Origin: an uncultured Acidobacteriota bacterium
GTDB lineage: Bacteria; Acidobacteriota; UBA6911
DNA length: 64,000 nt
Assembly: GCA_963809485.1 (NCBI GenBank)
Contig: CAWEJX010000004.1
Span: 160,001 to 224,000 of the forward strand
Reading direction: 5' to 3'
Shown: positions 48,952 to 60,555 of the stretch, in pieces
How the letters are laid out: each line of letters begins with the position of its first letter
How positions within the stretch are numbered: the stretch's first letter is position 1
The notes under the pieces: generated by a model
The model's database searches: none
What the model was told of the DNA's origin: nothing
The model's input: the letters and a program-made list of their open reading frames with translations, nothing else
Program-made: the position numbers and the translations under genes

Positions 48952-49219
48952 CTTATCGAACAGTCTGCCATGTGGCGGCACGGCATTCAATCGTCACCCG
49001 TCCATCGCATCGAGATATTCGAAAGCTGGCCATGCCAGGCAACCGGGACAACGTCAGCAACACGACAGTCGCACGACAGCAACAGTAGGACAGGCTGCGT
49101 AATTCCCTAATTCCCATAAGGTTGCCGGTACTGCAGGCACCCACATAGCTTGGGGAATTACATAGCCTGTCCCCCTTTTTCCCGCTTGATTCAATATATA
49201 AATACTTGTATATTAATGC

Positions 49220-49582
49220 ATGGCCGATAAGCCCCTTTTCTGGCTTGGATCCTCGCTTGCCGACTTGAGGTCCTTTCCCGCAGATGCGAGGCGGATTGCC
49301 GGATTTCAGTTGCGCCGGATTCAACAAGGGTTGGACCCAAACGACTGGAAGCCGATTCCCGCTGTCGGCCAGGGGGTCCGGGAAATCAGGATTCACATGG
49401 GGCTTGAGTTCAGGGTGCTGTATGTCGCGCAGTTTGCCGAAGGCCTCTATGTTCTTCATGCGTTTGAAAAACGGACGCAAAGGATGTCCAAATGCGACAT
49501 AGAGCTGGGAAGCAAACGCCTTGCAGCCCTATTGGCAGGAACGCGGGCCTCAAAACGCCAGTCAAAAAAAGGTAATTTATGA
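49220..49582 (+). CDS. RelE/ParE-superfamily (Gp49-like) toxin
   Basis: DLRSFP...GFQL..IQQG..P.DWKP...VG.GVREIRI, YVLHAFEKRT. Confidence 0.88.
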   Translation: MADKPLFWLGSSLADLRSFPADARRIAGFQLRRIQQGLDPNDWKPIPAVGQGVREIRIHMGLEFRVLYVAQFAEGLYVLHAFEKRTQRMSKCDIELGSKRLAALLAGTRASKRQSKKGNL

Positions 49583-49887
49583 GAGTCAAAATTACTCGGT
49601 CCAACCGCAATGTCTTCCGTGACCTTGGCTTCGATGTGCAGGAGGCGGAACACCTGAGGATTCGCGCCGATCTGATGATTGAGCTTCAAAAGCGAATTGC
49701 CGAAGGTGTATATAAACAGGCCGACGCCGCGAAAATCCTGAAAGTGACGCAGCCCCGGATAAGCGACCTTATCAATGGCAGGATTGATTTGTTCAGCACC
49801 GATACACTCATAGATATGCTGGCGCTCTTCGGCACCAGGGTCCATTTGATTCTAAAGCCTTCGCGCAATACCCGCCGAGTTGCATAG
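49579..49887 (+). CDS. XRE-family HTH antitoxin
   Basis: NVFRDLGF, QADAA.IL.VTQPRISDL..G....FS. Confidence 0.88.
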   Translation: MRVKITRSNRNVFRDLGFDVQEAEHLRIRADLMIELQKRIAEGVYKQADAAKILKVTQPRISDLINGRIDLFSTDTLIDMLALFGTRVHLILKPSRNTRRVA

Positions 49888-49908
49888 CGATTTGATAGAT
49901 CGTAATTC

Positions 49909-50149
49909 GGGGTCGGACCACGCTAAATAACTGGCATTAAAGGGTAAAGGTGCAGTTTTGCAGGTCTAAATGGGCTTAGAGCAGAATTGGGGAGGGTATT
50001 TTTGACTGTAAGAAAACAGGGATGTCTCCAATCAGTATGAAAATCCTTACACGTAAAATATGCCGCCCCAAATTGCAGCCGGCCCTTTTATCGGTCCCGA
50101 AAAATTGGTTATCAATAATCCTGCGAAGGCTTTATCGTGGTCTCACCCC
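49909..50149. mobile_element. ~240-bp repeat element with imperfect terminal IRs (GGGGTCGGACCAC / GTGGTCTCACCCC); uninterrupted copy
   Basis: Left part matches 54900-55003, next part matches 58917-58960, right part resembles 52458-52614. Confidence 0.7.
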
Positions 50150-50203
50150 CCGTTCGATTCAAAATAGATGGCGACAAGGCGTATATGATGGTAATATACT
50201 ACA

Positions 50204-50518
50204 GTGCCTGAATGGAACCGGGTGGAAGGCTTTGAATGGGATGAGGGCAACGCCCGAAAGAGCGCTGAGAAACATGGTGCATCTCAGGCTGAAGCGGAGT
50301 CTGTGTTCTTCAGTAATCCCTTGGTTGTTGTCCCGGATCCACGACACAGCCATGCGGAATCGCGCTACCACGCCCTCGGCCGGACAGTCTCAGGGCGGTT
50401 GCTGCATGTGGTGTTCACTCTTCGCCGCCGGGAGACGCTGATCCGCGTTATTTCCGCCCGTGACATGAATAGGAAGGAACGAACTGTTTATGCGAAAGAA
50501 ACGAAAGCCCATTCCTAA
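50204..50518 (+). CDS. brnT: BrnT-family toxin
   Basis: GFEWDEGN..KHG...EAESVF, HS.AE.R, IRVISAR.M..KER. Confidence 0.9.
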   Translation: MPEWNRVEGFEWDEGNARKSAEKHGASQAEAESVFFSNPLVVVPDPRHSHAESRYHALGRTVSGRLLHVVFTLRRRETLIRVISARDMNRKERTVYAKETKAHS

Positions 50519-50750
50519 GTTTTCCTCAGAGGCGGAAGAACGCGCGTTTTGGGAATCCGGCGATTCCACGGATTTTGTGGATTGGAGCCAGGCGAAACAC
50601 GTTCGCCTGCCCAAACTAAAACCGTCCACCCAATCCATATCGCTCAGGCTTCCTGTGATTCTTTTCGAGCGTATCAGAGTTGAGGCGAACAGGCGAGACG
50701 TTCCCTACCAATCCCTTATAAAGACTTGGCTCAGCGAGAAAGTGGGATAG
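50490..50750 (+). CDS. BrnA/CopG-family antitoxin
   Basis: IPKF.SEAEERAFW...DSTDFVDW, ISLRL, DVPYQSLIK. Confidence 0.88.
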   Translation: MRKKRKPIPKFSSEAEERAFWESGDSTDFVDWSQAKHVRLPKLKPSTQSISLRLPVILFERIRVEANRRDVPYQSLIKTWLSEKVG

Positions 50751-50897
50751 GCTTTGTTGTTCGAGTTCCTGTTCCAATGCCTTCCGGTTCGTAAACGCAC
50801 CGCGGGTTTTCTCAAAACCTTACAATGGATTCGCAGCCGGACCCCATGAACCGGCATTATTCATGAAGCTTCTGCTGCAGCGGCAAAGTCTCATGAG

Positions 50898-50923
50898 AAG
50901 GGGACAGTCACGACTGTCCCCTT
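50898..50923. repeat. Perfect palindrome AAGGGGACAGTC-AC-GACTGTCCCCTT (REP-like)
   Basis: Seen directly; sibling at 6979-7002. Confidence 0.65.
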
Positions 50924-51153
50924 TTTCTGATCGCAGGGGAGTATTACTTTGGAAGGTCACAAGCGGACAATGGGCTCACAGGACGCATACGAAGAAATCA
51001 CCCTCGCACCAGTGCTGGAAGAGTGGGGACGTCCACCTCGTTCCATTTTTTCGGCAGCTGAAAAGAAAATCGAGGCTTACGTCCCCGTTTCCCCCCGGCA
51101 ATGGATGCGAGAAGCGGCCGGCAAGTAAAAAATTCATCTTAAAAAAAGAGACC

Positions 51154-51187
51154 ATAGTCCACTTTACTAATGAGTAAAGTGGACTAT
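51154..51187. promoter_or_regulatory. Perfect 15-bp inverted repeat, putative operator
   Basis: ATAGTCCACTTTACT-AATG-AGTAAAGTGGACTAT, 10 nt before ATG 51198. Confidence 0.6.
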
Positions 51188-51197
51188 AGTCCGTTTT

Positions 51198-52334
51198 ATG
51201 CGAGTTCCGCGTTATCTCGAGAGTGCTGTGGGCGAGGCGTTGCGCAAGAAGATGGCATTCGTCGGCGGTCCCAGGCAGGTCGGCAAAACGACGTTTGCGC
51301 TTGGCTTTCTCGGCAAAAATGCCGATGAAACGCACCCTGCCTATTTAAACTGGGACCGCCCGAGCGTTCCACCCAAATTGAGAAAAGCGGAAATGCCGGC
51401 CGGAGAGCCTCTCGTGCTTCTGGATGAAATCCACAAGTACGCCCGCTGGAGGGGCATGGTCAAGGGAATCTTCGATGTTGAGAAGTCCCGCGGAAAATTC
51501 CTTGTGACCGGTTCCGCCCGGCTCGATTATTATCGTAAAGGGGGAGACTCTCTCGCGGGCCGCTACCGGTAATTTCGTCTCCATCCCTTCTCTCTGAGAG
51601 AACTCAATCGCCACCCGTTGCGGTCGGACCTTTCGGCTTTGCTGCAGTTCGGCGGATTTCCCGAGCCTTTATTCTCGCAGAATGAACCGGAGCATCGAAT
51701 CTGGCGTCGAGACCGCATCGTGCGAGTCGTTCGACAGGACCTCCGTGATTTGGAACAGGTCCGGGAAATCAGTCTCATGGAACACCTGGCCGATTTGCTG
51801 CCGTCCAAAGCAGGTTCCCCGCTGTCGATCAAGAGCCTGAGGGAGGGCCTCCAGATCGACCACAAAACGGCGGAACGCTAGCTGCAGATCCTGGAGAATC
51901 TCTATGTCTGCTTCCGCGTCTCTCCCTATGGCCCCCCGAGGATCCGAGCCGTGAAAAAGGAAAGGAAGTTGTATCTCTGGGACTGGTCGAGCGTTGAGGA
52001 TGCCGGGGCTCGATTTGAGAACCTGGTCGCCTCTCAGCTTCTGAAGTATTGCCACTGGATTGAAGATACCGAGGGCTACCCGATGGAACTCAGGTACCTT
52101 CGAGATACGGACAAACGCGAAGTCGATTTTGTGGTTCTGAAAGATCGCAAGCCACTGTGGGCGGTAGAATGCAAATCAGGAGAGAAGTCCGTCGGTCAAG
52201 CGCTCCGCTACTTCGCCGAAAGAACCGCAATCCCTCGATTTTTCCAGACGCGTCTCGGCGAGAGGCACTTCGAAAGTGGCAAGATCACGGTGTTGCCATT
52301 CACGCGGCTTTGTCAAGAGCTCGAGCTGCCATAG
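51198..52334 (+). pseudogene. AAA ATPase with DUF4143 domain; two in-frame stops
   Basis: GPRQVGKTT, LLDEIH, TGSA, SLAGR, GGFPE, FEN, REVDF in one frame; TAA at 51570-72 and TAG at 51879-81. Confidence 0.85.
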
Positions 52335-52728
52335 CGCCGGGGGGCTTGAAACAATATGAGAAAAGATCACGGTCTTGCGGGTTTTCTGTTAGGAGATTGT
52401 ATCCGATGCGATATCGGTTCATCAGCTGCTGCGATATCGTAACGGTGTCACGGGCTTGGTATTTTTGGCTTCAGAAAAATCAGCAAGGTCTTCAAACATA
52501 GTGAAAATCCTTAAATTCAAAAAATGCCGCCCAAAATTGTGGCTAAGTCATCTTTCCAGCCCCAATAATCGAGCTATCGATTTTTTTGCAAAGGCATTAC
52601 CGTGGTCTGTCCCCGTTAAACCATTTCTTTTCTATGGGCGCCCATCCAATTTTGCTATATTAGCTCTACCCGATTGATCCCACATTGCATGCATTGAACC
52701 CGATGTCGACGTGGAGGAAGCGCTCCCT

Positions 52729-53339
52729 ATGATCGGCAAGACGCTGGGGCACTATAGAGTCGGCGAACAGCTTGGCCGCGGAGGCATGGGGGAAGTCTTT
52801 GTTGCCGATGACCTCAATTTGAACCGCAAGGTCGCCCTCAAGTTCCTTCCCGAAGCATTCACGGGCGATCCCGAAAGAATGGCCCGCTTCGAGCGCGAGG
52901 CCCGACTTCTGGCATCGCTCAATCATCCCAGCATCGCTGCGATCTATGGACTCGAACAGGCCGAAGGCAAGAGGTTCCTCGTCCTGGAACTGGTAGAGGG
53001 CGAGAATCTGGCGCAGAGGACCGGCTGTCGAGGGCCCCTAATCAATTGCTATGGTACGACCGGCAGGGAAAAGTCCTCGGATCCGTTGGACCGCCGGGCA
53101 TCTAATCAATTCCGGTAATTTCTCCGGATGGCAGGCGATTCGCGGTCAGGACTGCGCCGGATTTTGAAGCCGGTGTCCCTGTTACTCTTTTTAATGCCTT
53201 TCCCGGCGCCTGGCGGACCCGGAACAATTTCGATGTCACAAGCGACGGGCAACGCTTCCTCATTGTCAGCCTGACCCGGGACGAGACCACTTCATCGATC
53301 ACCGTTACTCTTAATTGGACTGCCCTGGCAAAGAAATGA
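52729..53339 (+). pseudogene. Internally deleted Ser/Thr kinase-beta-propeller gene
   Basis: LGRGGMGEV, VALK, RFEREA, HPSIA N-lobe; then QLLWYDRQG..*..PVISPDGRRFA; then FDVTSDGQRFL...VTLNW C-terminus; catalytic loop absent. Confidence 0.8.
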
Positions 53340-53486
53340 CGCTCCCCCACCCTCTTCCGGGCCCTGCTGCGCAATATAAACCTGAATTTACCTGCAATAC
53401 CGCCCACAAGGAGTTTATAGCCTGACGGTAAAAATGCTCGCACGATTTCCTTGCAAATTAGAGGGCGGCGCTCTAATCTGCATAGT

Positions 53487-54647
53487 ATGTGGCGACGCCT
53501 GGCTCAAACGAGATTGCGTGCACTCTGGCGGCAGTTTCCGGCCGTGCTGATTTTGGGAGCGCGCCAGGTCGGCAAAACGACACTGGCCCGCCAGACATTT
53601 CCCGGCTTTCCCTACTGCGACCTGGAGGAACCGCACCTCCGTGCACTGTTTGCCGACGATCCGACATTCCAGATCCAACAACGTTCGCGCCCCGCACTCA
53701 TTATTGACGAAGCTCAGGCCGTGCCCGCTGTTTTTAATTCACTGCGCGGAATCATCGACGCACATCGCAAGAAGAATGGCCGCTTTCTGTTGCTTGGTTC
53801 GGCGCAGCCTTCGCTGGTCCGCCAGATTTCCGAATCGCTCGCCGGCCGGGTCGGAATCCTGGAATTGGACCCGCTTACCGCAGCTGAGGCCGCCACGGGG
53901 GACCGGGCGCGAGACTGGCAGCAATTATGGCTGCAGGGAGGTTTTCCCGATGCTTTGGGCGGCTCCTTTCGCGAATGGTGGGAAGCCTACTTGCGGACTT
54001 ATGTGGAGCGCGACCTACCTCAATTGGGAGTTCCTGCAGATCCCATTCTGCTGCGCCGCCTGCTCACGATGCTGGCGCACATCCAGGGCGGCATGCTCAA
54101 TGCTTCGCAACTCGGCAACTCCCTGGACGTTACGTACCATACGGTGCAGCGCTACCTGAGCGTTCTTGAGCAGACCTTCATTATCCGGCACCTCCCGCCA
54201 TACTATCGCCACATCGGGAAACGCCTGACGAAAGCTCCAAAAATCTATTTGCGCGATACCGGACTGCTGCACCATCTGCTCAATATCAATACGCTGGAGG
54301 AACTCGATCATCATCCCCAGCGCGGCGCCAGCTGGGAGACGTTTGTAATGGAAGACCTCATTCGCAGAGAGAAACTGCGCCATCCGCACGCGCAATTCTA
54401 TTATTGGAGAACTGCGACCGGAGCAGAGCTTGACCTGTTGCTGGACCGCGGATCCCAACGCATTGGAATTGAGATTAAAGCCGGGCGAGGCGACAAAACA
54501 ACTATTGCCCGCGCAACCGAGCAGATTGCCAAGGATGCAGGCGCCACTTCGGTTTGGATTCTCGATCAGGCTGCAGGTACGGAGGCTCTCCGGCCATCTG
54601 TCCGGCGGCGCGGCTTCGCCGAAAGCCTAAAATGGCTTCCCTCCTGA
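53487..54647 (+). CDS. AAA ATPase with DUF4143 domain (intact)
   Basis: GARQVGKTT, IIDEAQ, LGSA, SESLAGR, GGFP, KAPKIYLRDTG, WE, YWRT..GAELDL. Confidence 0.9.
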   Translation: MWRRLAQTRLRALWRQFPAVLILGARQVGKTTLARQTFPGFPYCDLEEPHLRALFADDPTFQIQQRSRPALIIDEAQAVPAVFNSLRGIIDAHRKKNGRFLLLGSAQPSLVRQISESLAGRVGILELDPLTAAEAATGDRARDWQQLWLQGGFPDALGGSFREWWEAYLRTYVERDLPQLGVPADPILLRRLLTMLAHIQGGMLNASQLGNSLDVTYHTVQRYLSVLEQTFIIRHLPPYYRHIGKRLTKAPKIYLRDTGLLHHLLNINTLEELDHHPQRGASWETFVMEDLIRREKLRHPHAQFYYWRTATGAELDLLLDRGSQRIGIEIKAGRGDKTTIARATEQIAKDAGATSVWILDQAAGTEALRPSVRRRGFAESLKWLPS

Positions 54648-54823
54648 TACACTAGCCTGGGCCTCACTGCGAAAAATAAACCTGGCCGAATAATTCGAGA
54701 TTCGATCTTTGTGGAATTAGCGAACTTCATGGCATTCTGCGTCTTGAAATCCATTACAATGTGCCCAACACGATTCTATCAAATTGTATTGAACCGGTTG
54801 TCGACGTGGAGGAGGCGCTCCCG

Positions 54824-54895
54824 ATGATCGGCACGACACTCGGGCATTACCGGATCACCAGCCAGCTTGGATTAGGGGGTAATTTGGACAATTAG
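54824..54895 (+). pseudogene. 5' stub of a second Ser/Thr kinase gene
   Basis: MIGTTLGHYRITSQLG.GG; leader TGTCGACGTGGAGGA.GCGCTCCC.ATGATCGGCA shared with ~52704-52738. Confidence 0.7.
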
Positions 54896-55022
54896 TGACA
54901 ATTCGGGGTCGGACCACTTTAAATCACTGGAAGGGGAAAGGTGCAGTTATGCGGGCCTAAATGGGCCTAAAACAGAATTGAGGGGGGGCATTTTTGATTG
55001 TAATTGACCGGCCAATCGCTGC

Positions 55023-56171
55023 CTATTTTTCTTCTCCAGCCGATCCTGAAGGGTGGAGTTTTTTCAGTTTGCTTGACACCTTGGCAAGCCGATTGATGAG
55101 GCGCTGCATTGTAAGCTGTTGTTTTGAAGCGTTGAGGCCTCGCCGATTCATTTCGAGGAAGTGCATCGCATCGGCAATGCACTGGAGAGCACGGATATGA
55201 GGGTGTACGGATTGGTTACGGGGATTGCTGCGTTGCGGCAGCTGGTAGAGGTTGGCCAGGTTGGCTCGGGCCGAACTATATTCGCGTTGTAGATCTACCT
55301 GACTCACCTCTACATAACGCATTGTCATTTCGATTTTTGTATGTCCGAGGAGTGTTTTGACTGCAGGCAGGCTGGCGCCGCCGCGGAGCATCTCGGTCGC
55401 AAAAGTATGTCTCATTTGATGCGTCGTGATTCGGGACGCACTGCAGTTTGCTTTTCGGGCCGCTTTCCTGATCATCGCGACCATTTGGCTATACGAAGGA
55501 CGGGAGCCATCTTCGCGCATTAGCAAGAAGGTGGATAATTTTCTGGCCTTAGCCGGGGCTCGATTGCGCAAATCATCGAGGTGTTCAATAAGACTACGGC
55601 TATGGGCGTCCAAGGGAACCAATCTTTCCGTATGCATCTTGCCGAGAGGGACGCGGATTGCCCACTGTTGATCGCCCAGATCCCGGAAGCAATCGACTGC
55701 GAGATTCAAACATTCACCAACGCGCATACCGGTGGCACGCATGAGAAGCAGCGCAGTTGCTTCAACGGTGCCTTTTTTGCGGAGTTCTTCGCAAATGAGG
55801 CGATCATCTTCGGGCGAGAGGGGCCGGGGAAGGTACTTGTCCAGGTGTGGGAAGTCTCGGCGAACGATGAGGTTTTCTCTTATTCGGTCTATTCCTTCAT
55901 CGGCAAGGTCGCGAAGGCACTTGCGTAGCTCATAGAGTTGGTGGAGACGGGTGCAGGTTCGGGAGCTGGCCAAAGTTGAGATCCATCCGAGGATATGCGG
56001 ATCCCGCCTGAGTTGGGAGAGCTTATGAATCTCGGGGTGGTTTTGTTTGAGGAAGCGCATGAAGCCATTCAAAGTGCTTCGATACCGATACATCGTGTTT
56101 GGCCTGTGAACAATAGCAAGACTCTGAAGATAGGAATCGAAGATCTGTTGAATAGTGCGCGGTTTACTCAT
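55023..56171 (-). CDS. Tyrosine recombinase 2
   Basis: TGMRVGE, VPLGK..TER, THQMRHTFA, LLGH..IEMT.RY; full catalytic set; helical C-terminal extension. Confidence 0.92.
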   Translation of the reverse strand: MSKPRTIQQIFDSYLQSLAIVHRPNTMYRYRSTLNGFMRFLKQNHPEIHKLSQLRRDPHILGWISTLASSRTCTRLHQLYELRKCLRDLADEGIDRIRENLIVRRDFPHLDKYLPRPLSPEDDRLICEELRKKGTVEATALLLMRATGMRVGECLNLAVDCFRDLGDQQWAIRVPLGKMHTERLVPLDAHSRSLIEHLDDLRNRAPAKARKLSTFLLMREDGSRPSYSQMVAMIRKAARKANCSASRITTHQMRHTFATEMLRGGASLPAVKTLLGHTKIEMTMRYVEVSQVDLQREYSSARANLANLYQLPQRSNPRNQSVHPHIRALQCIADAMHFLEMNRRGLNASKQQLTMQRLINRLAKVSSKLKKLHPSGSAGEEK

Positions 56172-57222
56172 CGAAGGAAGCACTCCGGAGTTGGGCCAAC
56201 GCTTGCGATCGCTTTTCGACGGCGCGGTGATATTCCCGCCAGACATCCTGGGGAGACAATTCCACGTAGAGCATGGTCGTGTGAATCTGAGAATGACCCA
56301 TGAGTCGCATCAGTGCGGGTACTGAAACGCCGGCACGGATCATGTCGGCACCGAAGGTGTGGCGGAACCGATGCGGGTGGGCGTTGATCGTTTGAGTCGC
56401 ACGTCGATGGTGACGAAACAACGAACGCAGGCCGGCGGATGTCATCGGTTGGCCGCGCCGCCATCCCTTGAGAGAAAGAAACAGGAGGGGCGACCCGAAA
56501 GCAGGCCGTTCGAATTCGAGATAACGCCTAAGAACCCGAATGATCGCATCTGCCAATGGCAGAACCCGCTGTCTGTTTCCTTTGCCACGAACAAAGATCT
56601 GAGTCTCGGAAAGCCGCAAATCTTCGAGCCGGAGTTGGATCGTTTCATGGGAACGCAGGCCGTTAAAAAGCATCAATCCCACGAGACTGAGGTCACGGAA
56701 GGTGCGAAAGCTGGACCAGAAACGTGAAACTTCATCAGGCTGGAGGGGGATGACGACTTTTCGAGGTTGTCGTAACCGCAGTCCCGCGATTGCGGTGCTG
56801 GGTTTTCCTATGCCCATTGGACTTCGTCTCTTGTATCGGGTTTGCACACTGGCGCGAGTTCTGGGGACTTCCTTCTGGTAGTAGAATCGGTACAGGGATC
56901 GGACAACCACCAAACGATGATTGACCGTAGGCGGCGACGGCTTGGGTTCGTTTTCAAGTTGGTATCGAACGTAATCGAGCAGACGAAGCTCGTTGAGAGT
57001 GGATAGACTCGGCCAGCGAGAACCGTGTAACCACCAACGGACGAAGTTCAACAGATCGAACCCATACGAGCGCAAGGAACGGACGGAAAGGTTGCGCAGG
57101 TACTGGGCATCCAGAAAATCATTGATGAAACGGACCGGCTGGTCCTTAGAATCCAAGAGTTGATAGGGAGACATGCCCGCAGGGCCGGATGGGTAACGAA
57201 TGAGATGAAAAGGCGGGGTCAT
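56164..57222 (-). CDS. Tyrosine recombinase 1
   Basis: NGLRSHE, RGKGNRQR, HPHRFRHTFG, LMGH..IHTT.LY; ATGA overlap with the primase stop. Confidence 0.92.
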   Translation of the reverse strand: MTPPFHLIRYPSGPAGMSPYQLLDSKDQPVRFINDFLDAQYLRNLSVRSLRSYGFDLLNFVRWWLHGSRWPSLSTLNELRLLDYVRYQLENEPKPSPPTVNHRLVVVRSLYRFYYQKEVPRTRASVQTRYKRRSPMGIGKPSTAIAGLRLRQPRKVVIPLQPDEVSRFWSSFRTFRDLSLVGLMLFNGLRSHETIQLRLEDLRLSETQIFVRGKGNRQRVLPLADAIIRVLRRYLEFERPAFGSPLLFLSLKGWRRGQPMTSAGLRSLFRHHRRATQTINAHPHRFRHTFGADMIRAGVSVPALMRLMGHSQIHTTMLYVELSPQDVWREYHRAVEKRSQALAQLRSASFDE

Positions 57223-58226
57223 ACACATTGTGCTTCCTCCAGACATCTTGTGAAATCAGCAGCGGTGGCTCCGGAAACAAAGAAACTATTGGGATCATGG
57301 TTTTCCGGAAGCGGTACGATCTTCGATTGCAGACCGGCCTCCCGGAGTTGCCGTGCCAGTTTCAAAGCAGCGCGTTGACCGGCAGCATTCGTATCCGAGT
57401 CAAAAGCAATGAAGATCTGTCTATTGAGATCGTCGCATAGTTGGGCAAACTGCTTGCCTGTCAGGTGGCAGCCGAGAGCGCTGGTTGTATTGCGAAAGCC
57501 AGCCTGCCAGAGAACCGCAAGATCGAAAAGGCCTTCCACCAGGATAACGTTGGGAGCATTGTGAATCGACTCCCATGCGACCAGGCCGATCCTAACACGA
57601 GGCAGAAATCGATGTGGCGGCGGGGGACCGATGCTGCGTCCGTACAGATTGACGATGCGGTTCTGATCGAGACAAGGAAAGACGATGCGGTGAAAGAAGG
57701 TGTCATGCCCCTTTTGATTTATCAATCCAAGATTCACGAGCCGGTCGTAATTGTGGCCGCATACCGATAACAGGTGCCCACGCAAACTGCCGCCTGGCGC
57801 ATAGCCCAATCGAAGGTGACGTAATATCTCTGGATCCCGCAATCCGCGTTGGTGAAGATAGTTCATCGCTTCCTGGTGGTGCTGCAACTGATACTGGTAA
57901 AAAGCGACCGTATCGCGGAGGAGGTCGTCATCACCCCTGAGCTTGTCCCATTCTCCGGCCAGCCGTGCGACGCTATCGCGGAAAGAAAGGTTGAAGTAGA
58001 CCTGGACGAAGCGAATCAAGTCGCCGCCATAGCCACAGCCATGGCAGTGAAAAAGATTTTTCTCGGCGTTGACATAGAACGACGGCTGGGTCTCGGAGTG
58101 CAGCGGGCACAATCCAACATATTCGTTCCCTGAACCCACAGGACGGCCAGTCCAATTGAGGCGTTTGAGATAATCCAACAGTGGAAGATCGCGCTTAAGT
58201 TTTTCCACTTCCTTGCAGTTTGCCAT
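57219..58226 (-). CDS. DnaG-type primase (CHC2 zinc finger + Toprim), no helicase-binding domain
   Basis: CPLHSETQPSF, FHCHGCG.GGD, YL..RG, RIVFP, LVEGLFD, FDSD..GQ.AA, DPN. Confidence 0.9.
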   Translation of the reverse strand: MANCKEVEKLKRDLPLLDYLKRLNWTGRPVGSGNEYVGLCPLHSETQPSFYVNAEKNLFHCHGCGYGGDLIRFVQVYFNLSFRDSVARLAGEWDKLRGDDDLLRDTVAFYQYQLQHHQEAMNYLHQRGLRDPEILRHLRLGYAPGGSLRGHLLSVCGHNYDRLVNLGLINQKGHDTFFHRIVFPCLDQNRIVNLYGRSIGPPPPHRFLPRVRIGLVAWESIHNAPNVILVEGLFDLAVLWQAGFRNTTSALGCHLTGKQFAQLCDDLNRQIFIAFDSDTNAAGQRAALKLARQLREAGLQSKIVPLPENHDPNSFFVSGATAADFTRCLEEAQCV

Positions 58227-58609
58227 CAGAGCCTCCGGACGGGAACGCCTGTTCGGCCGCAAATGATGCAGGCGATACGTTCGAGAGGGTTTGCTCTCGC
58301 AGATCCGACGTTCCCTGACTTTGATGGATCGATCCTGACATTACTGTCTTGGCTTCTGGAACCCTGATACGTCACGCTTTTTTTATTGGACTGGCGCAGA
58401 CGATAGTTGCGCTGGTGGTCTCGATGGTCGAGTTTGCCTAAGGGACTTTGCCGGTAGCGTCTATTCGCTTCGCGCAGTTGGTGCCGGCGGGCGCGGTCCC
58501 GACATGCCTGACTGCAGTAGTGCTGTCCGCGATCGCAGTGACTGCAGATATGGAATATCTTGCCGCACCCCGCGGCATGGCAAGATCGTTGCCGGAGGAT
58601 GAGTTCCAG
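58226..58609 (-). CDS. Cys-rich basic protein (~127 aa), absent from the ORF track
   Basis: Hand translation: LELILRQRSCHAAGCGKIFHICSHCDRGQHYCSQACRDRARRHQLREANRRYRQSPLGKLDHRDHQRNYR...VTYQGS...CIICGRTG; TGATG overlap with the primase start; CTG start, or TTG start if the C-run has one extra base. Confidence 0.75.
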   Translation of the reverse strand: MELILRQRSCHAAGCGKIFHICSHCDRGQHYCSQACRDRARRHQLREANRRYRQSPLGKLDHRDHQRNYRLRQSNKKSVTYQGSRSQDSNVRIDPSKSGNVGSARANPLERIACIICGRTGVPVRRL

Positions 58610-59043
58610 GGGCCAATCGTCCTTTCCCGAAGGCGGGACTCGACAACGGCCCCCATGTCATGGCACGCTAAAGACGACTTTGGTTCTGGGAGCTTTAACC
58701 GGGCTCTTGGAATTTAGCCTCGATCGTTACAGCGGTCGGGGCTTTCTTTTTCCGCCTTTCACGCCGCCACGATATCACCACCAGGGCTCAAGAAATCTAT
58801 TGCAGTTACCCAGAAGCAAAGAACACGGCTGAATAAAAGAGAAACCAGCTGAAAGAAAAAATAGGCAGCCACTCCTGGGCTGGTTTAGAAAAAACGACAT
58901 TTTGGCCGGTTAATAGGTAAGAAATCGGGGATGTTTCCAATCAGAATGAAAATCCCTACATACTCAGCATCTTTTCGAAGGGCGGCGCGTCAGGCGTTTT
59001 GTGAGAATTGAATCTGTGGCCATGCGCGAACCTACTCATAAGG

Positions 59044-59085
59044 TTCAGCGTTCATCGGCGTTTTTGTCAGCGTAGGTCAGCGTTA
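59044..59085 (+). repeat. Four-unit TC(A/G)GCG phased array
   Basis: tcagcgttca tcggcgtttttg tcagcgtagg tcagcgtt (10-12-10). Confidence 0.7.
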
Positions 59086-59109
59086 AAAGGGCCTGGAGCC
59101 CCGGCGCAG

Positions 59110-60555
59110 CTAAAAAGCTTCCCGTATCTTCGCCGCCCAGTGGACGAAATTGCCGTAGAGGTGCCCAAGGTGGGGCGCCGGGGAAAAGTGCCCGTGCCTG
59201 AGGTCCGTCTCCAGGGACTTTTTCATCAGCTCCATCGGGATATTTTTGCTGTCGGGCAGCGTGCGGTCGTAAAAGAACAGCAATTCAACATGGGCGCCAT
59301 GGCCATACTCGATCGGGATAATCTGGAAATTATTCGGCGCGTTTAAAATCAGCTTCCTATCGATGAAGTCGTTGAGGAACTCCGGAAACGCTTTAGCTAT
59401 CTCACAGGTGTGGCGGAGCGAGTCTGCGTGCAGGACCGGCGCCCACCCTCCGCCAAGCTTCAGCACGCGTTGCAGGAAACTCACGATGATGAAGAAGTCC
59501 ATATTGTCTTCCCATATCTTACGAATGGATGGATCGACTTCTTCTCCCCCAGTTTCTCTGACGATATCCCACAGGACCCGCTCCTCATACGCCGTTTCCT
59601 CCGGAGACGAGGTGGCCAGGTAAACCCAGACCGCGCAGGACAGCTCTTTCTGGAAAAGTCCGCTGTTCCACAGCGTCCAGAAATCGTTGGCCGAAACCGT
59701 GAACATCACAGCCGCAGTGGCATAGAAGAACTTCAGCACCGCCGCACCGATTTCGGCTCTGCCCATTTCGATCATGAAATCGCGGGCCTTTTCGAGCGCA
59801 GCAAACTTGAAGATAAAGACTTTGTGGCAGTCCTGAGGCAGGCGGACCTTGTACGATGGAGTGCGTCCAAAAGACGGCATGACTGCAGGCCCTTTCCAGG
59901 CGTCCAGGCCAATGGCTGCCTTGGTAAAAACGCCGCGCCCCTTCTGAATCAAGCCTACCAGACTTGGTCCGGGCCCATCCGGGCAGAACCATCCGGCGTC
60001 ACCTCCAAGAGAGCCGGCCCTGAGAATTTCGCCTGAAGGCATCACCCACTCGTATCCCAGCAGATAGCGGTTATTCTTCGAGGTGCTGTGCTGGTTGTGG
60101 TGTTCCCCCTTGCCCAGAAAGTTTGACATTACCGAGCACGACGGTCCTACGGACGGGACCGGATAGCTCAGTCCCCTTTTCATGAGTTCCGGCTTCAACT
60201 GGACATGCCGGACTCCGGGCTCAACCACCACGTAGCGGTCCTCTTCGTTGATCTCCAGGATCCGATTCATTCGTCTCAGGCTGAGAATGATCTTCAGCTT
60301 GGGGCCGGGCGGCATTCCGGCGGAAAGGAGCGAGACGACTGAATTGCACTGGATGTCGTACTGCCTGCATATTTTGACGACAGCCTGCACCTCTTCGGTA
60401 TTGCCCGGCAAAACGACGGCATCGGGGCTTGCGGGCTTGCGGCCATCCTGGGGCGAAGTGTGCCGGTAGGCGGCGAGGATATGGGGGCGGCCACTTATGT
60501 ATTCTTTCCCCACAACGCCTTCGAGCATCCTGAAAATATCTTCCGGTAAGCTCAT
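59110..60555 (-). CDS. FAD-binding oxidoreductase (GlcD/VAO family)
   Basis: PDAVVLP..TEEVQ, LRRMNRILEI, VVEPGV, EWVMPSGE, WFCPDGPGPSL. Confidence 0.85.
   Translation of the reverse strand: MSLPEDIFRMLEGVVGKEYISGRPHILAAYRHTSPQDGRKPASPDAVVLPGNTEEVQAVVKICRQYDIQCNSVVSLLSAGMPPGPKLKIILSLRRMNRILEINEEDRYVVVEPGVRHVQLKPELMKRGLSYPVPSVGPSCSVMSNFLGKGEHHNQHSTSKNNRYLLGYEWVMPSGEILRAGSLGGDAGWFCPDGPGPSLVGLIQKGRGVFTKAAIGLDAWKGPAVMPSFGRTPSYKVRLPQDCHKVFIFKFAALEKARDFMIEMGRAEIGAAVLKFFYATAAVMFTVSANDFWTLWNSGLFQKELSCAVWVYLATSSPEETAYEERVLWDIVRETGGEEVDPSIRKIWEDNMDFFIIVSFLQRVLKLGGGWAPVLHADSLRHTCEIAKAFPEFLNDFIDRKLILNAPNNFQIIPIEYGHGAHVELLFFYDRTLPDSKNIPMELMKKSLETDLRHGHFSPAPHLGHLYGNFVHWAAKIREAF

Follow-up and report, generated by a model that had tools for sequence, protein, structure and literature searches.

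What is the 3.9-kb segment that splits one copy of a short dispersed repeat at this locus, how did it arrive and is the repeat its target? The window (the whole 64,000-nt stretch analyzed here) holds an uninterrupted copy of the same repeat 5 kb away. An initial annotation made from the letters alone had proposed that an element inserted at a GTAA core inside a multicopy repeat and that the empty paralogue defines its ends to the base. The empty-site inference as such is routine, and its value is that an empty and a filled site together fix the ends of a mobile element without experiment.

We queried the whole genome (6,035,645 bp) by BLASTN with window 49904-50055 and obtained nine alignments, including the query itself. 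Query positions 1-108 match window 54900-55003 (82.6% over 109 columns, E 3e-24) and positions 105-148 match window 58917-58960 (88.6% over 44 columns, E 4.7e-9), reproducing the exact coordinates of the pairs 49904-50011/54900-55003 and 50008-50051/58917-58960 that had been proposed. Six more distant copies lie on contigs C12 and C7 at 73-79%. On the query, the two pieces from the window run collinearly and overlap by four bases, which are GTAA, and MAFFT agrees; a break in collinearity across the join, which the initial annotation had named as fatal to its reading, was thus not seen. The match between the empty and filled sites is far beyond chance, and its parts are as follows.

50008-50011: single GTAA of the empty site, which reads ...TTTTTGACT GTAA GAAAACAGGGATGTCTCCAATCAG; the two alignment pieces overlap here.
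54900-55003, no strand assigned: left portion of the split repeat copy, with the left GTAA as its last four bases (55000-55003).
58921-58960, no strand assigned: right portion of the split repeat copy; no similarity to the family extends past 58960.
Filled site: ...TTTTTGATT GTAA (55000-55003), element, GTAA (58917-58920) GAAATCGGGGATGTTTCCAATCAG.

The element between the repeat halves is 3917 bp long and recurs, 100% identical, on contig C7 (C7:257815-261731), where it sits 127 nt downstream of lepA. Identity between the two copies begins at GTAA and ends at GTAAG, and the flanks outside are unrelated. Two copies with the same bounds in unrelated flanks confirm the ends independently, and the presence of identical copies in different contexts marks the element as mobile. 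The ends are therefore defined to the base as proposed, save for the four-base ambiguity that any shared core leaves, and insertion at a GTAA core is borne out both by the overlap of the empty and filled sites on GTAA and by the GTAA that also bounds the C7 copy.

We considered whether the uninterrupted paralogue might itself be a former insertion site from which the element was precisely excised, that is, repaired rather than virgin. Excision by a recombinase would restore a single core and look identical, and the two repeat copies are 5 kb apart. However, the empty site carries no distinguishing trace, and the paralogues differ by 11-17% and hence are old. We regard such a history as extremely unlikely, and the ends of the element read identically under either view.

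A version of the filled locus without the element is also found in metagenomic data. No RNA run was among those listed for the window. Three DNA sequencing runs of one study cover small shares of it, and in one of them (X2) a single low-depth contig (151 nt, depth 2) matches 54944-54986 with 2 mismatches, continues for 12 letters and then matches 58918-59012 without mismatch, bridging 54986 to 58918 without the element. Its left 43 nt, which hold the 2 mismatches, lie within repeat sequence; its right 95 nt match the window without a difference and extend 52 nt beyond the repeat, which identifies the contig as the same locus lacking the insertion. The site reads ...GACTC TAAG... in the contig as against ...GATTG TAAG... 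at the filled site, which hints at a strain polymorphism or, if the contig is ancestral, at a core matched at only three of four bases. In the closest genome, G006, no orthologous empty site was found: the right flank is shared only from window 59021, with other DNA leftward, and the lepA side of the C7 site runs to the contig end.

We also searched for the joined ends of a circular form. This genome's assembly contains no such junction, and an assembly is a poor place to find a transient circle, which makes this a weak test. Seven matches to the joined-end pattern in IMG/VR had no element genes nearby and were set aside as chance hairpins.

The surroundings are accessory and repeat-rich. Within window 49220-50750, the empty repeat copy lies between two toxin-antitoxin pairs, Gp49-like plus HTH_37 upstream and BrnT plus a CopG-type antitoxin downstream. 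To the right of the interrupted repeat (window 58960-59090) is a patchwork of further short repeats, of which 58960-59031 finds one site each, at 85-88%, in three related genomes and about 59041-59090 has 26 matches in G006.

The element carries four genes, all on the minus strand, which in the direction of transcription are the zinc-finger-like ORF, the primase, recombinase B and recombinase A.

55023-56246, minus strand: tyrosine recombinase A, 407 aa, Xer-like (Pfam PF00589, E 6e-31).
56164-57246, minus strand: tyrosine recombinase B, 360 aa, Xer-like (Pfam PF00589, E 2e-31).
57219-58262, minus strand: DnaG-type primase with CHC2 zinc-binding, primase core and Toprim regions (Pfam PF01807, PF08275, PF13155).
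58229-58657, minus strand: cysteine-rich zinc-finger-like ORF, a conserved fourth ORF upstream of the primase.

Alignment to PDB structures shows that both recombinases retain the complete catalytic set R, K, HxxR, H and Y, as is expected of the enzymes of tyrosine-recombinase transposable elements. Neither is a chromosomal XerC or XerD by the equivalog models TIGR02224 and TIGR02225, the scores of 119.5 and 121.6 bits (cut-off 335) and of 117.4 and 109 (cut-off 330) being far too low. No Tn554-specific family matched the recombinases in Pfam or NCBIfam, and the best NCBIfam matches were the Xer models, below cut-off. Searched with Pfam, the ORFs of the element contain no DDE, HUH, serine or other transposase domain.

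The primase probably starts at ATG 58226, which gives 335 aa, the length of the stored homologue P0001. Residues 17-328 align with a solved DnaG structure (PDB 2au3, E 1e-36), and C52, H55, C73, C76, E243, D288 and D290 are invariant in 19 homologues. The zinc-binding and core/Toprim regions are present and the C-terminal helicase-binding domain of a replicative DnaG is absent, with a TIGR01391 score of 181 against a cut-off of 283.6; a separate DnaG-like gene on contig C20 shares 31% identity with the element primase.

The zinc-finger-like ORF matched no Pfam family at its cut-off, and a strict motif recognized it in 8 of 91 loci, distant members included. In the window its ATG (58656) is out of frame with the rest, and the two parts would be brought together by a -1 shift at the CCCC run 58609-58612. 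The ORF is split likewise in L082 (458-946) and L084 and runs in one frame in L001 (1331-1789) and L002 (512-985). As judged from the reading frames, the split could reflect programmed frameshifting, as in some insertion sequences, or decay.

Based on a profile of the primase, we collected relatives of the element from contigs representing one genome per species. Among 529 candidates, 399 stretches encode the primase, and the best 80 were kept. The record titles of these best 80 of 399 place the hosts mostly in Acidobacteriota, with others in Planctomycetota, Nitrospirota, Verrucomicrobiota, Methylomirabilota, Acidimicrobiia, Limnocylindria and Proteobacteria. Of the 69 loci with enough DNA, 57 keep the order primase, recombinase B, recombinase A, and the 12 exceptions include loci with interrupted elements or inverted pairs. 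Eight other genomes hold 2-4 compared copies each, about 3.95-4.0 kb long and 96.6-99.95% identical. Many homologues stand alone on contigs of about 4 kb; multi-copy elements of this size break short-read assemblies. In the plasmid collection, no relative of the primase exceeded 30% identity.

We found no paper on an element that combines two tyrosine recombinases with a DnaG-type primase, within a literature search of main texts outside subscription journals, and the element appears to be new among multi-recombinase transposons. A compact four-gene element for which we found no description occurs in hundreds of soil and sediment genomes, going by the 399 candidate stretches.

The family also includes rearranged loci. 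Some genomes hold close inverted pairs of copies, such as L031/L032, which lie about 6 kb apart on one contig, and elsewhere extra DNA interrupts the element between or after the recombinase genes (paired-inverted or interrupted elements: L031/L032, L014/L015, L012, L069).

The ends of the element indicate how GTAA should be read. Each end carries a 12-bp inverted arm, and a 7-nt spacer, deduced from the two junctions, adjoins each arm.

55004-55015, no strand assigned: recombinase-side terminal arm, TTGACCGGCCAA, a 12-bp inverted repeat.
58902-58913, no strand assigned: primase-side terminal arm, TTGGCCGGTTAA, a 12-bp inverted repeat.
58914-58920, no strand assigned: element-borne 7-nt spacer, TAGGTAA, whose last four bases are the right GTAA (58917-58920).
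54997-55003, no strand assigned: target-side 7-nt spacer, ATTGTAA.

We used the arm motif as a search key to locate the ends of family members, and in eight genome groups it is present at boundaries that BLAST defines independently. Both ends were located in this way in 40 distinct related insertions, three of which (L010, L031 and L065) have odd sizes and probably mis-paired ends. Joining the ends would give, in every subfamily among the 40, an arm, 7 nt and the inverted arm. Core sites of tyrosine recombinases have this arrangement of arms and a 7-nt spacer.

Comparing the primase-side spacer with that of the other side, we found identities of 0.95, 0.95, 0.93, 0.90, 0.45, 0.33 and 0.57 at positions 1 to 7 (n = 40, related copies included, so that the counts at positions 5-7 are not independent). 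The first four positions are thus shared with the target in 90-95% of the 40 insertions, and all seven bases are identical in 6 (for example TTACCTC in L082 and CTATGAC in L002). The shared four bases differ by subfamily: GTCG; GCCG or GCCC; TCGG; and TTAC, found in L001 and L082, the closest relatives, as well as in the window element, and equal to GTAA on the plus strand of the window. In the window, spacer bases 5-7 are the element-derived TAG (58914-58916) on one side and the target-derived ATT (54997-54999) on the other, and TAGGTAA is identical in both copies of this genome. Across nine genomes with multiple copies, the primase-side spacer is a single sequence in eight and the other-side spacer in two.

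The arm-7-arm geometry, together with the sharing of only the first four spacer bases with the target, makes the homologous start of a recombinase crossover region the best reading of GTAA, which would then not be a duplication of the kind a transposase makes. This spacer pattern gives a concrete and directly testable prediction of the recombination site. We note that a 7-nt overlap with partial homology, a 4-nt overlap and a target-specific 4-bp duplication would look the same at this level and cannot be separated by sequence alone.

Under the last of these, GTAA would be a true target-site duplication: a preferred tetranucleotide would be cut with a stagger, and the recombinases would serve another role. 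A 4-bp direct repeat beside terminal inverted repeats does resemble a classical insertion sequence, and spacer identity falls sharply past base 4. Against this stand the lack of any DDE, HUH or serine enzyme in the ORFs of the element, the recombinase-type geometry of the ends and the 6 of 40 insertions that repeat all seven spacer bases; moreover, a single tetranucleotide flanks all copies of a subfamily and equals the start of the spacer that the element itself carries. We judge a duplication to be very unlikely and retain the crossover reading.

We also asked whether the targets mimic the arms of the element. An ungapped comparison gave means of 3.8 and 2.5 matches of 12, near chance in that register, and the idea was dropped.

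The repeat unit is longer than first described (49904-50051), and the filled copy retains only its left ~143 nt.

49909-50149, no strand assigned: uninterrupted (empty) repeat copy, ~241 bp, one of the ~245-bp units, delimited by terminal-inverted-repeat (TIR) scan and pairing and by BLASTN.
Repeat TIRs, 20 bp: GGGGTCGGACCACG.. starting at 49909 and ..CGTGGTCTCACCCC ending at 50149.

A conserved 14-mer at the start of the repeat, the TIR motif, matches at 41 places with no more than one mismatch, and these often form inverted pairs separated by about 230 bp. Pairing them delimited 13 units, two of which overlap; they span 159-345 bp, mostly 241-249 bp, and solo ends occur besides. With a short non-coding unit, terminal inverted repeats and many dispersed copies, the host repeat is a MITE-like unit. 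What it shares with MITEs is the ~245-bp non-coding unit, the 20-bp TIRs and the dispersed intergenic copies; a target duplication and a related autonomous partner are not among the features identified here. The genes around its copies encode toxin-antitoxin systems, DUF4143 ATPases and truncated kinases. An Rfam scan of 49000-60000 returned one sub-threshold microRNA match only, so the repeat belongs to no known RNA family. The toxin-antitoxin neighbors had prompted a reading of the repeat as an integron attC site, which was dropped given the 20-bp terminal inverted repeats.

Fragments of Ser/Thr-kinase genes end at or within copies of this repeat, which suggests that it has disrupted kinase paralogues. 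Window 54826-54884 encodes a 19-codon kinase N-terminus (MIGTTLGHYRITSQLGLGG, then stop), and L091:2607-3041 (G000:C7:579106-579540) encodes a 144-aa kinase fragment that covers Pfam Pkinase positions 1-121 of 263.

Does the element seek out this repeat? The initial annotation had inferred that the repeat could offer many harmless landing sites, and a survey of occupancy and a comparison of flanks now bear on that claim. About 14 repeat units exist and one carries the element; none of the 13 TIR-bounded units (two overlapping) is occupied. The homologous GTAAG is present in only 2 of these 13, the empty paralogue and C20:1133494, and the remaining 11 read CTAAG, GATAG, GCTAG, TTCAG, TTAAG and so on at the site.

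The host of the C7 copy is another dispersed repeat, about 95 nt long, and 3 of the 5 displayed paralogues (those on C9, C20 and C6) keep GTAAG at the corresponding position. This second repeat (G000:C7:257709-257820) contains AACTGGRAAC-like tandem motifs, has paralogues at C9:83609, C20:257415, C6:16012, C7:384716 and C4:44633 and often stops a few tens of nucleotides short of a gene start; the C7 element copy is located toward its 3′ end, 19 nt upstream of a hypothetical ORF. Part of the second repeat is also matched by a tandem array at G000:C19:41168-41906, made up of about eight palindromic stretches of 25-30 nt that recur roughly every 100 nt.

To set a base rate, we sampled 400 GTAAG sites in DNA outside ORFs of at least 100 aa. 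A non-self match of at least 40 nt lay within 75 nt of 187 of them (47%). At this rate both local insertions would fall in repeats about one time in five by chance, so their shared context is unremarkable. What the two local sites share with those of the closest relatives is a short consensus and not this repeat. In the four independent TTAC-type insertions (C4, C7, L001 and L082, the last two being the closest relatives with both ends readable), GTAAG on the plus strand is preceded at 5-10 nt by an A/T-rich run. The resulting 15-nt consensus, a motif partly derived from these same sites, has 12 unoccupied matches in the genome, three of them in the two repeat families. Beyond the local sites, no more than 10 pairs of family flanks proved related in an all-against-all BLAST, several being trivial, and most flanks are unrelated beyond about 25 nt.

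These results allow us to weigh the view that the element has a specific target and safe haven in this multicopy repeat, or in dispersed repeats generally, and recognizes the repeat itself beyond a short core. Both local copies do lie in dispersed repeats whose unoccupied paralogues keep GTAAG, so that the claim of an insertion inside a multicopy repeat is borne out, if weakly. Elsewhere in the family, L041, L059 and L071 (three insertions in two other genomes) share a related right flank of ~80 nt, and the targets of the GTCG subfamily are alike over ~30-40 nt. However, the two local insertions occupy two different repeat families, the full units of the first family are all empty and mostly lack GTAAG at the site, nearly half of comparable sites lie near repeats anyway and the family flanks diverge soon after the core. 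We consider targeting of repeats as such unlikely, and dedicated targeting of the MITE-like repeat is not supported, either by the occupancy survey or by the flanks of homologous elements. Some preference for repeat DNA is possible, given that both local insertions lie in dispersed repeats with GTAAG-bearing paralogues. We conclude from the site comparisons that the element would recognize a short sequence, of which repeats supply some copies. In all likelihood the repeat context is a coincidence: the site is an acceptable match to the short target consensus of the subfamily in DNA where insertion does little harm, and the repeat itself is probably common intergenic filler.

Taken together, we think it likely that the 3917-bp element entered one MITE-like repeat copy through site-specific recombination by its tyrosine recombinases, with the repeat as an incidental setting. 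The joined ends would form a core site that reads, in primase orientation, TTGGCCGGTCAA-TTACCTA-TTAACCGGCCAA, that is, a 12-bp arm, a 7-nt spacer and the inverted arm. The two recombinases would perform the exchange with the spacer as their overlap region, and the GTAA on both sides (TTAC on the gene strand) would be its first four bases, the sole part obliged to match the target. The direct repeat would thus reflect crossover homology and not a duplication from a staggered cut. After insertion, the spacer of the element itself would remain by the primase-side arm and the spacer bases of the target by the recombinase-side arm; asymmetric spacers are what is expected if only one strand pair defines the product.

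The primase would fit a replicative step after such a one-strand exchange. We hypothesize, tentatively and with some doubt, that these elements are widespread, undescribed replicative transposons in which one strand pair is exchanged at four bases of homology and the element-borne primase primes the synthesis by which the one-strand product becomes a new double-stranded copy (copy-out, paste-in). If this is true, the mechanism would have left as its footprints a primase-side spacer that stays constant, an opposite spacer taken from the target and the many near-identical copies per genome.

The closest known analogues are the Tn554, SE, GInt and RIT elements. The pairing of a primase with a recombinase has a further parallel in the NBU1-type mobilizable transposons of Bacteroides, in which the primase-like PrmN1 travels with a tyrosine integrase and is needed for excision. 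NBU1 resembles the present element in carrying a DnaG-like primase gene alongside a tyrosine integrase; it has one integrase, mobilization genes, a length of ~10 kb and a tRNA-end target.

The trio of consecutive tyrosine recombinase genes that characterizes RIT elements is not found here, where two recombinases accompany one primase. The recombinases also do not fit the Tn554 gene set (TnpA, a large TnpB and TnpC), being of ordinary size (360 and 407 aa). Tn554 shares with the present element two tyrosine recombinases plus a small third protein, an asymmetric short junction and a site preference. As described, it differs in its large TnpB recombinase, its TnpC, the lack of a primase, its resistance genes and its occurrence in Firmicutes (PMC10214605, PMC8138268). 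RIT (recombinase in trio) and GInt elements, mentioned in both papers (PMC10214605, PMC8138268), have three recombinase-fold genes, in contrast to the two recombinases and primase here; they are alike in the compact operon of tyrosine-recombinase-fold genes between inverted repeats and in being multi-copy in some genomes.

SE elements are described as having two RHRY recombinases within the core genes intA, tfp, intB and srap, terminal inverted repeats of 13-19 bp and a 6-bp spacer that is inherited asymmetrically (PMC10214605, PMC8138268). The elements are 7-16 kb long with cargo, occur in 1-2 copies per replicon and are reported only in Gammaproteobacteria (PMC10214605, PMC8138268). Recombination between attL and attR leaves no empty site, which the authors explain by one-strand exchange followed by replication, and copy-out-like behavior has been proposed (PMC10214605, PMC8138268).

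The present element is like SE in having two RHRY tyrosine recombinases plus two further core genes and no other strand-transfer enzyme, short imperfect inverted ends (13-19 bp in SE, 12 bp here) and a short joined-end spacer (6 bp in SE, 7 nt here); its near-identical multiple copies also fit the proposed copy-out-like behavior of SE. The non-recombinase genes differ, being a DnaG-type primase and a zinc-finger-like ORF here as against tfp and srap; judged by gene description, only the two recombinases have counterparts among the SE core genes. The elements here are also ~3.9-4.0 kb long, carry no cargo, occur in two to four or more near-identical copies and, among the best 80 of 399, are found mainly in Acidobacteriota and in six or more other phyla or classes. 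Spacer asymmetry is seen in both but may not be of one kind: in SE, as described, the spacer by one end is carried from the previous site, whereas here the primase-side spacer is constant within and between genomes (8 of 9 genome groups as against 2 of 9 for the other side) and does not come from the last site. The presence of a primase in a recombinase transposon bears on how elements such as Tn554, SE and GInt could increase in number with no empty donor site left behind.
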